UHGV virus genome: UHGV-1353943
Reading direction: 5' to 3' (one strand)
Source: a virus
DNA: 32,893 nt
Every line of letters starts with the position of its first letter. Within the stretch, counting starts at the first letter, position 1. A program made the translations under genes and the position numbers. The notes under the pieces were generated by a model, which had not been told where the DNA came from, searched no databases, and saw only the letters and a list, made by a program, of their open reading frames with translations. Below are positions 1 to 5,726 of the stretch, one piece after another.

Positions 1-492
1 CATCAGATGCTTATGCTGTGGGGGGCGAGGCTCTCAGAGCTTAGGCTGGCAACAAAGACAGAGTTTGACCTGCTGGACAACGTATGGACCGTACCGAAAG
101 AGCATAGCAAGATGGGTAATGTTATCCGCCGTCCAATCTTCGAACAAATTAAGCCTTTCCTCGAAAAGGCCATGACAACGTACAATGATGTTCTTTTCCC
201 TGGAGAAGACATAAACAAACCGATCAGCATCGCTGCAGCCAACCGATTCGTAAATCGAATAAGGGGAGGGATGGATCTAGGTTACTGGCGAACACACGAT
301 TTCAGAAGAACGCTTGTTACACGTCTGTCCGAGATGAATGTCGAGCCTCATGTTACTGAGCGAATGCTCGGTCATGAACTTGGCGGGATAATGTCCGTAT
401 ACAATAAACACGACTGGATAGAGGCTCAGCGCAAAGCGTATGAGCTTCACGCTGATAAATTGTTCTGGCACATCAGGAGCATTTCTGATTAA
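1..492 (+). CDS. int: Tyrosine integrase, C-terminal catalytic part (5' end outside window)
   Basis: Open frame from position 1 to stop at 492; translation carries recombinase-type motifs (HDFRRT, GHELGG, Y near the C-terminus). Confidence 0.85.
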   Translation, partial: HQMLMLWGARLSELRLATKTEFDLLDNVWTVPKEHSKMGNVIRRPIFEQIKPFLEKAMTTYNDVLFPGEDINKPISIAAANRFVNRIRGGMDLGYWRTHDFRRTLVTRLSEMNVEPHVTERMLGHELGGIMSVYNKHDWIEAQRKAYELHADKLFWHIRSISD

Positions 493-664
493 CGCCACCG
501 TTAAGAATCCACCCCTCAACAGCTTCACGAAGGTATGATTTGGGGTGGGTTCTGACTGGCTTCGGAAATCCGTGCCGTTTGGTATAGTTCCAGATTGTCT
601 GACGTGATGAAACACCGAGCTTGTTCATCACTTCTTTCTCAGGAATCAGGCTGGTATCGGTCAT
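473..664 (-). CDS. xis: Excisionase / AlpA-family DNA-binding protein
   Basis: 63 aa; LIPEKEV...GVSSRQTIWNYTKRHGFPKP resembles AlpA/Xis helix-turn-helix; GGAG upstream of the ATG at 664; converges on int and overlaps its 3' end by 20 nt. Confidence 0.65.
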   Translation of the reverse strand: MTDTSLIPEKEVMNKLGVSSRQTIWNYTKRHGFPKPVRTHPKSYLREAVEGWILNGGVNQKCS

Positions 665-680
665 CTTAATTCTCCAGGCA

Positions 681-703
681 AAAAGAAACCGCCATCAGGC
701 GGC
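681..703 (-). terminator. Intrinsic terminator (hairpin CCGCC/GGCGG plus T-tract on minus strand)
   Basis: Plus-strand AAAAGAAACCGCCATCAGGCGGC; on the minus strand this is a GC stem-loop followed by TTTCTTTT. Confidence 0.5.
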
Positions 704-745
704 TTGGTGTTCTTTCAGTTCTTCAATTCGAATGTTGGTTACGTC

Positions 746-1045
746 TTATTCGATACGCACTCCTGGTATTTCGCCTTTTGATATTGCTAAGTCATAAATT
801 TGCGCGGCACTATACCCATCTCGCATCCATGAATCTAAGGCGCGAACAGCCTCGCTACGCTTTTTATCTTCTCTCTCATTTTTGATATCAACGAGGACAT
901 CAACGCAATTAAGGCATATGTGGATTTTGTCCTTACATTCGATCATGGCGGCTTTGCCATGATTTCCGCCACACAGTGAGCATAAATCTTCAGGGTCTGG
1001 CTGGTATTTCTGTAACGTTAGAGGGTTGAATGTTGAACAGACCAT
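746..1045 (-). CDS. Hypothetical Cys-rich (zinc-ribbon-like) small protein; accessory gene
   Basis: ORF 746..1057; CSLCGG...CLNC Cys pairs; GGAG lies 6 nt before the third in-frame ATG (1045), the first ATG (1057) has no RBS; terminator hairpins on both sides. Confidence 0.45.
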   Translation of the reverse strand: MVCSTFNPLTLQKYQPDPEDLCSLCGGNHGKAAMIECKDKIHICLNCVDVLVDIKNEREDKKRSEAVRALDSWMRDGYSAAQIYDLAISKGEIPGVRIE

Positions 1046-1057
1046 AATCATCTCCAT

Positions 1058-1080
1058 AAAACAAAACTCGCAGTAGCGAG
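1058..1080 (-). terminator. Hairpin CTCGC-TACT-GCGAG followed by TTTTGTTTT on the minus strand
   Basis: Read directly; sits immediately upstream of the Cys-rich gene RBS. Confidence 0.4.
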
Positions 1081-1084
1081 TTCA

Positions 1085-1113
1085 GATAAAAGAAAACCCG
1101 CACTAGGCGGGTT
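1085..1113 (-). terminator. Intrinsic terminator (AACCCGC-loop-GCGGGTT plus TTCTTTTAT on minus strand)
   Basis: 7-bp stem, 5-nt loop and a T-rich tail on the minus strand, downstream of the NYN gene. Confidence 0.55.
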
Positions 1114-1292
1114 CGTATTCGTTCAGGTTGTCAGTTCTTGGCGTTCTGCTCAGCCATCTCTGTAAATAGAAAGGCCCGCAATGATGGCCTGGGTGTAAAT
1201 GCTGTTGGGGGCACTTAGGCTACTTCTTTGTGTTCTTTTTCTGCCAGAATGGATCATCTATTAAGGCGCGGCTAACCTATTCCTAGCTCCAA

Positions 1293-1940
1293 TCACAATT
1301 TATCCATGGTATCTGGCACTAACAAATCGGAATGTTCATACATCGTCTGCTTGACACTATGTCCCAGTGTGTATAGAAAAATCTGTCGGCCTTCTTTCCT
1401 GGCAAATTTTATAATTGGAACAAAATCTGAATCACCAGTCACCAAAGCATATATATCTGCCTGTTTTTTTAATGACATTGATGACATATCTAACGCAATA
1501 CGCATATCAACGCCTTTCTGCTGAACATTAGGCTTAACATTGTAGGCATTAATGGAAGAAGTTTTAGAGTCACTGCTCTTTAATGCCCATGGGTCAACCT
1601 TCCATCCTCGAAAGTTTGTCTCTCCAAGTCTTACTGCAAAAAAAGGAGTTCTTTTCAACTCATCAAGCATGGCTTTATTTCTTTTAGAAACTTCTGTTTC
1701 AGAGAAGTCAATTTTCTCTCCACTAATCGGATGCGTCTGTATTCCGGTAAGCGGCTCTGCATCGTAATAATAAATACGGTGCAAAATCATGCCTTCTAGT
1801 TCAGGCCTTTTTGTTAGTTTTTCTACAAATACTTTGATTACTTCCGCATCGATTGGCTTATCTTTTGTGCCTAATTTTGCACGCAAAAAACCAGCATCGA
1901 TCATGATGGCATATTTTCTGGTCATTGATTTGCAATTCAT
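1293..1940 (-). CDS. NYN/LabA-like (PIN-fold) domain protein; accessory gene
   Basis: 215 aa; N-terminal YAIMIDAGFL (Asp-containing strand) and C-terminal GDSDFVP are typical of NYN/LabA nuclease folds; markedly AT-rich compared with neighbours; no clear SD at any of the three candidate ATGs (1940, 1925, 1904). Confidence 0.6.
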   Translation of the reverse strand: MNCKSMTRKYAIMIDAGFLRAKLGTKDKPIDAEVIKVFVEKLTKRPELEGMILHRIYYYDAEPLTGIQTHPISGEKIDFSETEVSKRNKAMLDELKRTPFFAVRLGETNFRGWKVDPWALKSSDSKTSSINAYNVKPNVQQKGVDMRIALDMSSMSLKKQADIYALVTGDSDFVPIIKFARKEGRQIFLYTLGHSVKQTMYEHSDLLVPDTMDKL

Positions 1941-2165
1941 AGTAGGGAGGAAAGGGGGGGTGGGTTAAGTTCGCGGGGTACACCCCTCTTGTATAGTAGC
2001 GAACCGCCCACCTTCATTGCGCATAATTATAAAACCAAACTTATTGAGGAGCAAGCCCTCAGAGAAGGATGTTTTTACATCAAAAATGGTTAACCATCAT
2101 CCGAACCATCCGGAGTTACCGGAGAGTTGCCATTCACAAGGTCAGCTCGAACATATAGCGTGTCA

Positions 2166-2507
2166 TCATGGTGCTGATTGTGGCTGCACCACGTTAATTC
2201 GCTTAAATTGCTGGTTTCTTTCCCGTTCATCCAGTAGTGCCAGCGCAACATTTGGATTAAAGGCAGCAATAAATTCAGCGTTTGCATAAGCCTGAACATC
2301 TGTTTTAACCAGGCAGTTAACATGACATTCTGCAATCACGCCACCGGGTTCTCCTTTCCATTTTTGACAAACAAAAACTCCTGTTAAATTGCCGTGCTGG
2401 TTAACAGATGTATGCCCTACGATGTAGCTTCCTTTAGTTGCTTTCTCTGCCGCCTCACGCAGTGCCTGATAGTCAATCTTGCTCACTGGTTGCCTCCTTT
2501 GCGCCAC
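2166..2507 (-). CDS. Ead/Ea22-like early protein (tentative)
   Basis: 113 aa; position in the early-left 'ea' region; a 3' overlapping ORF in another frame (2090..2335) suggests a possible frameshift. Confidence 0.4.
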
Positions 2508-3999: not shown

Positions 4000-4058
4000 G
4001 GAAATAACGCTGATTTAATACTTCAGTCTTTGCCGCATTTAAAAATACGCGAACACCT

Positions 4059-4229
4059 TCACGATCTCCCTTCTGGCGATACATTAACGCCTGCTGCGTG
4101 TACATGCGTCTCTGTAACTTGCTCTCCTTCACTGTGGTTGCAAGTGACATGAATATCTCCTTCGTTACCGATTAAATCTTTCATCTGACGAATGAATTCT
4201 TCGTCTGACCAGTTATCTGTAAAACTCAT
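4059..4229 (-). CDS. Hypothetical small protein (kil-position gene)
   Basis: 56 aa from the internal ATG at 4229, which forms an ATGA overlap with the cIII-like stop; identity unknown. Confidence 0.4.
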   Translation of the reverse strand: MSFTDNWSDEEFIRQMKDLIGNEGDIHVTCNHSEGEQVTETHVHAAGVNVSPEGRS

Positions 4230-4396
4230 GGACGGCCTTGTTGTTTCAAAATATCCCAAAGCTTTTCGAGCAAGCTTTTCATTCTTGGTTGTTTAAAGTC
4301 TGCTCCGGTTAAAATGTTTTTTCGTGAATGCTGTACCGATAAAATCGGGTTGAAAGGGCGAACCGATGCCGCCCCTGCAATAGCGAACTGTTGCAT
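4226..4396 (-). CDS. cIII: cIII-like protein (putative FtsH/HflB inhibitor)
   Basis: 56 aa from ATG 4396 with AAGGAG RBS; N-terminus MQQFAIAGA and SLLEKLWDILKQ resemble lambda CIII; correct position left of N. Confidence 0.5.
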   Translation of the reverse strand: MQQFAIAGAASVRPFNPILSVQHSRKNILTGADFKQPRMKSLLEKLWDILKQQGRP

Positions 4397-4465
4397 AGGA
4401 TGCTCCTTCTGTTTGATTGCATAACGAAAACGCCTCAAGTGAAGCGTTATTGGTATGCATATAAA

Positions 4466-4492
4466 AAGGCCCTCACACTGGAGGGCAAAGAA
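4466..4492 (-). terminator. Intrinsic terminator (GCCCTC-CAGTGT-GAGGGC plus TTTTTAT on minus strand), tL-like
   Basis: Strong GC hairpin and T-run on the minus strand between the membrane-protein gene and cIII. Confidence 0.6.
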
Positions 4493-4635
4493 GATTTCCA
4501 ATAATCAGAACAAGTCGGCTCCTGTTTAGTTACGAGCGACATTGCTCCGTGTATTCACTCGTTGGAATGAATACAAAGTGCAGTGTTTATTCTGTTGTTT
4601 GTGCCAAAAATAAAGGCCGACTATGCGTCCTGAAA

Positions 4636-5001
4636 TTACTTAACCAATGATGCTGCATATTCGATAAGGTAAAGTTTTGGAGCAAGCCAAATTTTCAGCC
4701 AGTCGAAATAATTGAAGAAAACAACAATAGAAGTAATCTCTATTCCTGATGTGACAAGTAGTGATAAAAGAACAATATCTGCATCATCTCCTTTATTCCA
4801 TGCAAAAATCATCAGATAAACACACGCTATAATCACCAATACACAGATAGCCTGAATTCCAGCTGATGATACGGCGTGCCACATCAAAAGCTGATGGATG
4901 ACATCAGGAATCTGTGCCTGGCTAAATGAAACAGCCGCGTCTATTCCATTGCTGGCTTTTTGCAGTAGTTCTACGAGAATCTTGTTTGCTTGTTCTTCCA
5001 T
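4636..5001 (-). CDS. Small membrane protein (two predicted TM helices); possible superinfection-exclusion-type gene
   Basis: 121 aa; hydrophobic stretches IQAICVLVIIACVYLMIFAW and IVLLSLLVTSGIEITSIVVFF; AAGGTGA RBS; AT-rich; terminators on both sides. Confidence 0.5.
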   Translation of the reverse strand: MEEQANKILVELLQKASNGIDAAVSFSQAQIPDVIHQLLMWHAVSSAGIQAICVLVIIACVYLMIFAWNKGDDADIVLLSLLVTSGIEITSIVVFFNYFDWLKIWLAPKLYLIEYAASLVK

Positions 5002-5080: not shown

Positions 5081-5312
5081 TGTTGCAGGTATCAAGTAAG
5101 TAATTAGATGGAGCGCCATAAATTATGAATTCATCGTTTGTCGGATCCATCTCCATCTCTTGGCCTATTGCCATTCTTGCGTCAGTGTCATCAGCGGCGA
5201 AGCATAAAACAGCCCACGCTCCCATTGTTTTAAAAAGAACTGCAATTGGCTGTGGTTTTACTGAATTTGCGTTAGCGCGAAAATCACAAATCGCACTTTC
5301 ATGAAATTCCAT
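5061..5312 (-). CDS. Hypothetical protein immediately downstream of N
   Basis: ORF 5061..5369; internal ATG at 5312 preceded by GAGGT RBS and clear of N. Confidence 0.4.
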   Translation of the reverse strand: MEFHESAICDFRANANSVKPQPIAVLFKTMGAWAVLCFAADDTDARMAIGQEMEMDPTNDEFIIYGAPSNYLLDTCNIYNKAA

Positions 5313-5320
5313 ATCTAACC

Positions 5321-5620
5321 TCAAATAAGTGGTTTGCTGCCTAATTTCATTTTCTGGCGACCAACACAAGTCATACCCATTTCACTGCGTGGCTTGCGGT
5401 AGTAAATACGATTCTGTTTACGCTCGACTTCTTCTTCCTTCTTGCAGCGAAGGCTTCCGAGTGATGCTGCTTTGTCTGCTCTGACGCAACCAGAGAGCTT
5501 TAGCGCAATTTTTCGCGCCAGTCGCTGCTCTTGCATTGCCTGTTCACGTTGAGCCTGTCTGCGTGCTCTGCGGCGATTTCTGGCGTTATCGTCAGCCAGA
5601 TATGTAATGACTACTGTCAT
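5321..5620 (-). CDS. N: Antitermination protein N
   Basis: 99 aa; N-terminal arginine-rich motif (NARNRRRARRQAQ) and C-terminus CVGRQKMKLGSKPLI close to lambda N; GGAGG RBS; nutL in its leader. Confidence 0.8.
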   Translation of the reverse strand: MTVVITYLADDNARNRRRARRQAQREQAMQEQRLARKIALKLSGCVRADKAASLGSLRCKKEEEVERKQNRIYYRKPRSEMGMTCVGRQKMKLGSKPLI

Positions 5621-5726
5621 GTTGACCTCCGATGATTGACTTTGGCGGTGACGCGCCGGGTGCTTATCTTCCGGTTGCCGTCGTGCAGCTGCACTTCACG
5701 TCACCCCAAAGCCAACTACTCTTTGG

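Follow-up and report, generated by a model that had tools for sequence, protein, structure and literature searches.

A structured leader RNA precedes an NYN-domain ribonuclease gene in a mobile prophage cassette

What does a lone, AT-rich nuclease gene do beside the integrase of a temperate phage? The question was raised by the virus genome UHGV-1353943, of which a stretch of 32,893 nucleotides (the window) was analysed. A preliminary description had placed an NYN/PIN-fold gene, with its flanks, at 1058-2010 of this stretch and had proposed it as an insulated single-gene defence or host-takeover nuclease. Analysis of the locus and its relatives showed that the gene is preceded by a structured leader RNA, overlooked in that description; no other feature of the locus is as informative. 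The leader is a new, widespread and strongly covarying RNA motif that is family-specific to the NYN nuclease, and the RNA and the ribonuclease (RNase) are a cognate pair travelling together through phages, plasmids and chromosomes.

Structure and conservation of the leader RNA

The leader RNA was located with covariance models at 1956..2015 on the minus strand, just downstream of a predicted promoter, and comprises about 60 nt in three helices. Helix P1 pairs 2012..2007 with 1964..1959, P2 pairs 2005..1999 with 1974..1968, and P3 (GGGG/CCCC) pairs 1986..1983 with 1978..1975 around a UGUA loop. An invariant asymmetric loop of 12 nt, UACUAUACAAGA, occupies 1998..1987. The G-rich palindrome GGGGTACACCCC already noticed upstream of the gene is real and lies at 1975-1986; it is not a generic element but the apical hairpin of this larger conserved RNA. 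A pyrimidine-rich spacer, CCCCCCCUUUCCUCCCUACUAUGAAUUGCAAAUCA (1926..1955, minus strand), follows the leader and contains no U-run.

When the sequences upstream of the gene were aligned for E. coli, Klebsiella, Serratia and Morganella, about 50 nt proved invariant in copies whose proteins are 66-95% identical and whose flanks have diverged; the apical loop differs among these enterics (UGUA, UUUA or CUU) and its stem is kept. All IMG/VR contigs with the exact motif (10/10) carried an NYN open reading frame (ORF) about 80 nt downstream. Distant members from Methylomonas, Acidiferrobacter, Arenicellales, Binatia and others (41-53% protein identity) showed the same architecture in the same place with entirely different helix sequences. 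In the family as a whole, P1 has 5-7 bp and is GC-rich, P2 has 7-8 bp, P3 is a variable apical hairpin, and the 12-nt loop stands on the 5' side only and reads UACAAUCCAAGA, of which UACUAUACAAGA is the enteric form. Thirteen further loci folded unconstrained into the same design with the variant loop GACAUGUAACA. The element was found before NYN in at least 73 of 79 species-level loci.

The helices were supported by covariation. When 42 leaders were aligned with MAFFT, blind to structure, 81.6% of cells paired, compared with at most 49% when slid by 1-3 columns; 16 of the 18 pairs changed on both sides, and 0 of 500 shuffles reached the observed values. One covariance-model iteration gave an alignment of 70 sequences, fitted to the model and hence leaning towards the structure, in which 88% of cells paired (at most 50% slid) and 17 of 18 pairs changed on both sides. 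The covariance models R1 and R2 scored the window element at 63.4 and 61.1 bits, respectively, as the sole match in 32.9 kb. A large majority of the matches at E <1e-5 (62 of 63) lay immediately 5' of an NYN ORF and in its orientation, loci never used for training among them, and a search of about 250 kb of other sequence (flanks, the whole window and NYN-less phages) gave no further match.

A second match was observed in one Thermoanaerobaculia metagenome-assembled genome (L105, 1011-1066, minus strand, 43.8 bits), on the opposite strand and about 450 nt upstream of NYN. This second element is followed by no NYN ORF and no convincing gene, and GGGACTACGATA is repeated nearby.

Rfam 15 gave no match to the leader in the window (E up to 5), in 7 loci (gathering thresholds) or in 8 variant loci (E up to 1), and no published description of the element was found in the literature on NYN with RNA motifs or non-coding RNA. 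Two Rfam candidates, one resembling a Trp leader (1088-1186, E=0.33) and one resembling isrK (682-756, E=1.1), coincide with terminator hairpins and were taken as chance. A 41-aa ORF with a GTG start (1858..1983), which overlaps the hairpin, was rejected as a leader peptide because Serratia and Morganella, with CUU as the loop, have lost it. A repeat array of the ToxI kind was likewise rejected, since TRF found none upstream of the ORF and each locus gave a single covariance-model match.

Such a hairpin could act as DNA, either as a recombination or transposition site or as an operator, or could be a mere insulator or terminator of the upstream genes. The cassette that carries it is mobile, and in many relatives the GC-rich inverted repeat has A-tract and T-tract flanks like those of a bidirectional terminator. 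This explanation is nevertheless very improbable. The leader pairs contained 81 G.U or U.G combinations against 9 A.C or C.A, a strand-specific bias typical of RNA, so the structure acts as RNA in the sense orientation of NYN. Its position and orientation relative to the NYN ORF are also fixed and do not depend on how the upstream gene is oriented, and a generic terminator has no need of an invariant 12-nt internal loop. Cassette borders vary between copies (1047 or 1165 on one side, 2128-2132 on the other) and fall at homologous junction sequences, away from the hairpin. An attC site, a transposon end or another DNA hairpin was rejected in view of the G.U to A.C asymmetry together with these variable borders.

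The promoter, the NYN gene and its product

A sigma-70 promoter is predicted to drive the cassette. Its -35 box, TTGCTC, was read from the sequence at 2049..2054 and its -10 box, TATAAT, is a perfect consensus at 2026..2031, both on the minus strand and separated by a 17-nt spacer. The E. coli, Klebsiella, Serratia, Morganella and IMG/VR copies have conserved the -35 box as TTGCTC, TTGCGC or TTGAAG, in contrast to the spacer of 16-17 nt, which has diverged; the -10 box is TATAAT, TATAGT or TATATT in all copies, and the TATAnT columns are invariant in the enteric upstream alignment. A generic promoter scan did not report this pair because the -35 box matches TTGACA in only 3 of 6 bases, and the promoter call rests on phylogenetic conservation. 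The upstream region of its own with which the gene had been credited was thus borne out by promoter-like signals conserved across genera, but the limits of 1058-2010 were too narrow: the unit really reaches about 2131, and the predicted promoter falls outside the earlier range. Throughout the family, sigma-70 boxes are followed at a distance of about 20 nt by a conserved AUAAAAAAC tract, which precedes P1, so the element would be at the 5' end of the transcript.

The 215-aa ORF at 1293..1940 (minus strand) exists as first described, but its start at 1940 did not hold. This first ATG is not conserved in the Serratia and Morganella orthologues, and the start of every homologue corresponds to the second one. 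The real gene is very probably 1293..1925 (minus strand, 210 aa), which matches the RefSeq annotation. No Shine-Dalgarno sequence precedes either ATG, implying that translation would be weak.

The proposed NYN/PIN identity was confirmed by Pfam NYN (PF01936), which matched aa 129-191 at 46.1 bits against a cutoff of 24.2. This profile alignment covers model positions 59-124 only, because the N-terminal half of the protein carries insertions. PIN7 matched weakly and no other Pfam model did. A PHROG of unknown function, phrog_5783, matched over the full length, and the NCBIfam and PHROGs profile searches gave no functional assignment. Sequence searches of the PDB with the single protein and with the family profile gave no match, and fold comparison alone tied the protein to solved NYN structures. 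Its AlphaFold2 model (pLDDT 92) showed the NYN variant of the PIN-like alpha/beta fold. Sequence identity to VPA0982 (PDB 2QIP) and to the NYN domain of MARF1 (5YAA) is 12-18%, and compared with those domains of about 150 aa the family adds about 60 residues, mostly beta-hairpins (about 62-82 and 101-135). In contrast to LabA-like proteins and MARF1, no LOTUS/OST-HTH partner domain is present here, and a cognate leader RNA is undescribed for those proteins.

An alignment of 53 sequences showed that D15, D60, D145, D151, D170 and D172 (215-aa numbering) are invariant and that many Arg and Lys residues are conserved. D15 lies at the end of beta1, D60 at the end of beta2, D145 at the start of alpha3, and D170 and D172 at the end of beta4, which is where NYN domains have the four acidic residues of their metal site. 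Mutation of the four MARF1 aspartates at equivalent positions abolishes cleavage of single-stranded RNA (PMC6217404); the mapping onto MARF1 was made by topology, with no residue-level superposition. The protein is a genuine NYN-family nuclease with an intact catalytic constellation, apparently active and predicted to be a metal-dependent endoribonuclease. Its family corresponds to the NYN.COG1432/LabA-like cluster, which the published PIN-superfamily classification annotates as "function unknown" (PMC5499597). A paper on an RNase knockout in Thermus (PMC4229858) was set aside as evidence on the family, as it concerns a PhoH-like protein.

Mobility and genomic setting of the cassette

The leader and gene are carried on a mobile cassette of about 1.1 kb at 1047..2131, delimited by blastn breakpoints common to unrelated prophage backbones. 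The whole of 1047-2131 is common with a ybhC-integrated prophage (L002) at 99%, 1165-2128 with a Klebsiella phage-plasmid (L003) at 87%, which defines the minimal core, and 682-2132 with locus L004; segment 1165-1292 is 73% shared with Klebsiella. The cassette flanks match phages Sf101 and HK544 at 96-98%, and the cassette is missing from both. Judged by sequence, it is a classic moron, that is, a self-contained unit of sigma-70 promoter, leader RNA, NYN gene and terminators for which expression in the lysogen is predicted: it is absent from close relatives, lies between conserved genes, has a promoter and terminator of its own at the sequence level, and deviates in GC content. The AT-richness reported earlier was pronounced, as no 633-nt window of the 32.9 kb has a lower GC content than the ORF (0.381, against a mean of 0.50 and a standard deviation of 0.046), with flanking genes at 0.43-0.49. 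No conserved partner ORF or protein antitoxin was found in 1047-1292 or 1941-2131.

The gene had been described as accessory rather than core, and this was upheld. The cassette segment was present in 7 of 5,426 complete E. coli genomes (identity at least 98.9%), and no close homologue was found among 50,697 deposited phages, the best match having 34% identity. The seven E. coli copies belong to prophages whose integrases differ and which occupy three attachment sites, those beside sbcB, ybhC and dsdC/torI. In the 42.6-kb Klebsiella phage-plasmid, NYN lies in the nin region and is followed by an intact theta gene, and in prophages of Serratia (87% identity) and Morganella (66%) it lies between tail-chaperone-like and tape measure genes, by other variable cargo. 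The gene was therefore found in early-left, early-right and late operons, which argues for autonomous expression.

Both borders of the cassette retain traces of other phage genes. The right-hand junction (2093..2131, 39 nt) is ead/Ea22-like, being 97% identical to Sf101, inside its ead/Ea22 gene, and 92% identical to locus L007; this stretch is also carried by NYN-less phages. The adjoining Ead/Ea22-like gene (2166..2507, minus strand) is truncated at the C-terminus, covering Pfam model positions 1-81 of 139, and RefSeq flags its orthologue as missing the C-terminus. The truncation would fit recombination of the cassette into an ead/Ea22 gene. On the other side, 1131..1160 (minus strand) holds the last ~9 codons of a gene for theta (holE-like, DNA polymerase III), and 1058-1160 matches the 3' end and flank of the theta gene in 86 other E. 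coli genomes at 87-89%. Phage theta genes, intact or pseudogenised, fill this slot in those 86 genomes.

The downstream terminators accordingly derive from the 3' flank of a deleted theta gene. The terminator scan reported one intrinsic terminator at 1094..1114, with an 8-bp stem followed by UCUUUUAU, and a second in tandem at 1064..1083, both on the minus strand. The first lies near the terminator originally claimed at 1085-1113, and the two form a 30-nt tandem duplication at 1056-1114 (1.9 copies, 82% match). A weak candidate was found by eye in the conserved 3' part of the cassette at 1163..1190 (minus strand), where AGGCC, a 9-nt loop and GGCCT are followed by UUCUAUUU; the scan was silent on it because its loop exceeds 8 nt. 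The suggested insulation from pL therefore held on the 3' side only. Upstream, the scan found no minus-strand terminator before the cassette, so antiterminated pL transcripts would read into it.

Judged from ORF calls and profile matches, the locus belongs to the early-left operon of a P22-like or lambdoid prophage and forms its distal end. The position near the integrase was as reported: the C-terminus of a tyrosine integrase occupies 7..492 (plus strand), the window start falling inside the gene, and an AlpA-type excisionase gene, xis, occupies 473..664 (minus strand). Beyond the Ead/Ea22-like gene lie genes for Abc2 anti-RecBCD, SSB and Erf and, further on, a cI-like repressor. A 103-aa zinc-finger-like ORF (746..1057, minus strand) is placed between xis and the NYN cassette and has its own intrinsic terminator at 705..686 (minus strand). 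It matched phrog_3680 (unknown function) over its full length and, weakly, the ClpX-type C4 zinc finger (E=0.015). It is present in loci L001 and L004, with other genes in its place in L002 and L007, and appears to be a second, independent piece of cargo.

This setting bears on whether the RNase could serve the phage during lytic growth, in host takeover or in counter-defence, by degrading host mRNA or tRNA or else the RNA parts of host defences (ToxI-like antitoxins, retron non-coding RNA or CRISPR RNA), with the leader doing no more than limit its expression. The gene is co-oriented with pL and close to the early anti-host genes abc2, erf and ssb, with the open upstream side noted above, and the Klebsiella copy is co-oriented with the nin/pR operon. 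Anti-defence loci, such as those for anti-CRISPR proteins, also occur as promoter-bearing inserts in late operons. Such a role is considered improbable, however, as the occurrence of the cassette in three operon classes with its own promoter rules out a function tied to any one temporal class, distant clades lie in lysogeny modules beside a repressor, most family members occur outside phages, and the gene is very rare among otherwise similar phages.

Orphan RNAs, distant relatives and possible function

The reading that is tentatively preferred, at a strength short of probable, is that the cassette encodes an RNA-controlled and potentially toxic RNase, the leader being the nuclease's own negative control element. 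The target recognised by the NYN protein would be the invariant 12-nt loop, which is single-stranded and displayed between stable helices. Binding of this loop, its cleavage or both would restrain a potentially toxic RNase by limiting either its synthesis or its activity. Such control would resemble that of type III toxin-antitoxin RNAs over their endoribonuclease, or that of RNase E and Regnase-1 over their own mRNAs. The cassette would be expressed in the lysogen from its own promoter. If control lapsed, for example when an infecting phage shuts off transcription, the RNase would cleave cellular and phage RNA, and the outcome could be exclusion or abortive infection, or post-segregational addiction. 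Transcription in the lysogen, binding or cleavage of the RNA by NYN, toxicity and an anti-phage phenotype are steps that we only infer.

The fate of the RNA where the protein has been lost was revealed by a search that started from the RNA. An 18-mer of the commonest loop form gave 20 matches in viral and metagenome collections, of which 18 were true elements (53-76 bits). An intact or plausibly intact NYN gene accompanied 3 or 4 of these elements; four lineages retained NYN stubs only (L116, L120, L121/128 and L129), five lineages had no NYN on the contig (L113, L114/131, L117/124, L118 and L125), and 2 elements were cut off by contig ends. The helices of orphan elements stay compensated, with P2 reading GCGGGC/GCCUGC in L113 and GCGCGC/GCGUGC in L117. 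The phage contig L114, which is the same contig as L131, carries its orphan element at 4275-4335 with a downstream terminator of its own, a helix-turn-helix gene on one side, and gpW-like, lambda-family portal and protease-capsid genes on the other; the element of L113 (616-676) is a close relative. The L114 orphan could be an RNA decoy or a relic. The phage PhiTE reportedly escapes by means of a pseudo-ToxI, which a phage-borne orphan RNA recalls. Among the seven E. coli copies, one (L004, strain WP4-S18-ESBL-08, 5262-5699) has a 148-bp internal deletion in NYN, equivalent to 1359-1506 of the window, and its promoter and leader RNA are nevertheless 99% identical.

These orphans are weighed against a rival account, in which the leader is purely cis-regulatory (an attenuator, a riboswitch-like sensor or a host-factor site) on a non-toxic LabA-like RNase, and the cassette is neutral or mildly beneficial cargo with no part in phage conflict. 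The element invariably stands after the promoter and ahead of the ORF, and a U-run after P1' makes it terminator-like in 34 of 59 family members, the standard layout of an attenuator or riboswitch; the remainder, the enteric copies included, have CU-rich tails. The 12-nt loop is conserved in the manner of a ligand or protein pocket, many members are lone chromosomal genes in metabolic neighbourhoods, and the NYN.COG1432/LabA-like cluster has been tied to gene regulation, not to toxicity (PMC5499597). Comparison with riboswitches did show a conserved loop and a terminator-like platform, with the NYN RNase as the sole linked gene family and with orphans. With one associated gene family and no metabolic regulon, no ligand suggests itself. 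Compensated elements outlast NYN, in one case on a phage contig with a terminator of its own, where an element acting only in cis should decay with its gene. The family is moreover scattered on prophages and conjugative plasmids and at sites beside an integrase or transposase, and is rare within species, as in E. coli. A purely cis-regulatory leader is therefore judged rather unlikely.

More distant relatives add to the picture. In NYN clades at about 30-34% identity the ORF is again preceded by a long terminator-like hairpin, with a strong promoter ahead of it. Phage ev099 (NC_049953) encodes a 285-aa NYN paralogue of about 30% identity at 4007-4864. It lies directly downstream of cI in the same orientation, behind TTGACG-17-TAGATT and a hairpin of terminator-like form with U7, and the paralogue also occupies this place in about 48 records of Stx2a-converting phages. 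Phage lambda carries rexAB in the slot beside cI. In Streptococcus phage Javan85, an NYN relative lies between the repressor and the integrase. This placement of distant clades in lysogeny modules would fit expression in the lysogen.

Other homologues were observed in different settings. On a Thermus thermophilus plasmid (L133, 2492-3205) the homologue has a helicase-related gene on one side and an N6 DNA methylase gene, which it overlaps, on the other; on Campylobacter pTet-M129 (L111, 4001-4681) it follows just after a giant SNF2-related gene, an arrangement seen on 136 conjugative plasmids of Campylobacter. Both have 32-35% identity and stand in apparent operons with defence-like or anti-restriction-like contexts. 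In Methylomonas subterranea (L008/L030), NYN and its leader lie in opposite orientation amid a nif cluster (nifEN, nifX and ferredoxins).

Known systems resemble the cassette in part. In type III toxin-antitoxin and abortive infection systems (ToxIN, CptIN and TenpIN, and AvcID with its single small RNA antitoxin), one promoter is followed by a structured RNA and then by an endoribonuclease-type effector, as is the case here, with the RNA at 2015..1956 between the predicted promoter and the ATG at 1925 and with the same order in the leader-bearing relatives. Many NYN family members have a terminator-like U-run between RNA and ORF, which the window copy lacks, and the modules are likewise scattered on phages, plasmids and chromosomes, the RNA persisting when the protein is lost. 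The protein differs in being NYN/PIN-like, outside the ToxN/AbiQ, CptN and TenpN families, and the RNA in being a single hairpin with no tandem repeat array or pseudoknot. Toxicity of NYN and its neutralisation by the RNA are putative here, hinted at indirectly by the lineages that keep the RNA after losing NYN and by the internal deletion in one of the seven E. coli copies. With type II systems of the VapBC/PIN kind the cassette shares a small, mobile and sporadic metal-dependent RNase of the PIN superfamily as putative toxin; the difference is that no conserved partner ORF occurs in 1047-2131 and that the protein belongs to the NYN branch, not the VapC branch.

Several RNases are controlled by hairpins in their own transcripts, namely hp2, with its asymmetric internal loop, in the 5' untranslated region of E. 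coli rne, the rnc leader, and the stem-loop in the 3' untranslated region of Regnase-1. These have in common with the leader a conserved stem-loop with a single-stranded internal loop in the nuclease's own transcript. Their sequences and enzymes are unrelated, the element described here also occurs without the gene, and feedback is only proposed here. Lambda rexAB and the morons of HK97 and HK022 are examples of lambdoid morons and lysogen-expressed exclusion genes. Like them, the cassette is an autonomous promoter-gene-terminator insert of deviant composition between conserved genes, and the place of rexAB beside cI is taken by distant NYN paralogues; gene family and RNA element differ, and exclusion by the NYN cassette is only putative.

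Several results weigh against an RNA-controlled toxin. The defence role suggested in the preliminary description gained no support from PADLOC (PADLOC-DB v2), which gave no system-level match and only weak, partial matches over about 50 aa around the GDSDF motif (PDLC01154 "NYN", 2.3e-5, and HEC-09, 2.6e-4), and no published defence system or toxin-antitoxin system built on the NYN family was found in the literature. The leader RNA is single-copy, unlike the repeat arrays of ToxI. The window copy has no U-run, so attenuation by termination cannot be the mechanism there. Many distant members stand alone on the chromosome amid genes of metabolism, for instance in the nif cluster or beside pyr genes, which also fits an ordinary regulated housekeeping RNase. 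The orphan RNAs could simply be recent relics, and co-orientation with pL, or elsewhere with pR or a late operon, would be compatible with a role in lytic growth. On balance, the missing Shine-Dalgarno sequence, the repeated loss of NYN with the RNA kept, the sporadic mobile spread and the relatives in lysogeny modules lean towards a toxin-like, conflict-related role. The broader proposal, that NYN and hairpin form an unrecognised class of RNA-controlled toxin or abortive infection system, type-III-like but built on a PIN nuclease, widespread in Proteobacteria and Acidobacteriota, mobilised by temperate phages and countered by some phages that bring only the RNA as a disarming decoy, is put forward as doubtful.

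NYN/LabA-like proteins are among the largest bacterial nuclease families still annotated as "function unknown" (PMC5499597). The present results tie one NYN clade, with more than 2,200 proteins in the homologue search, to a structured RNA absent from Rfam, which is the first concrete molecular partner of the family. If the pair proves to be a toxin with an RNA antitoxin, the range of type III-like systems would come to include the PIN superfamily, a compact candidate of a single gene plus an RNA would join prophage-encoded immunity, and the orphan RNAs of phages would become candidate decoys. If autoregulation is all that the leader provides, it would still be a new and widespread class of cis-regulatory RNA, whose simple architecture makes it a good subject for structural and mechanistic study.

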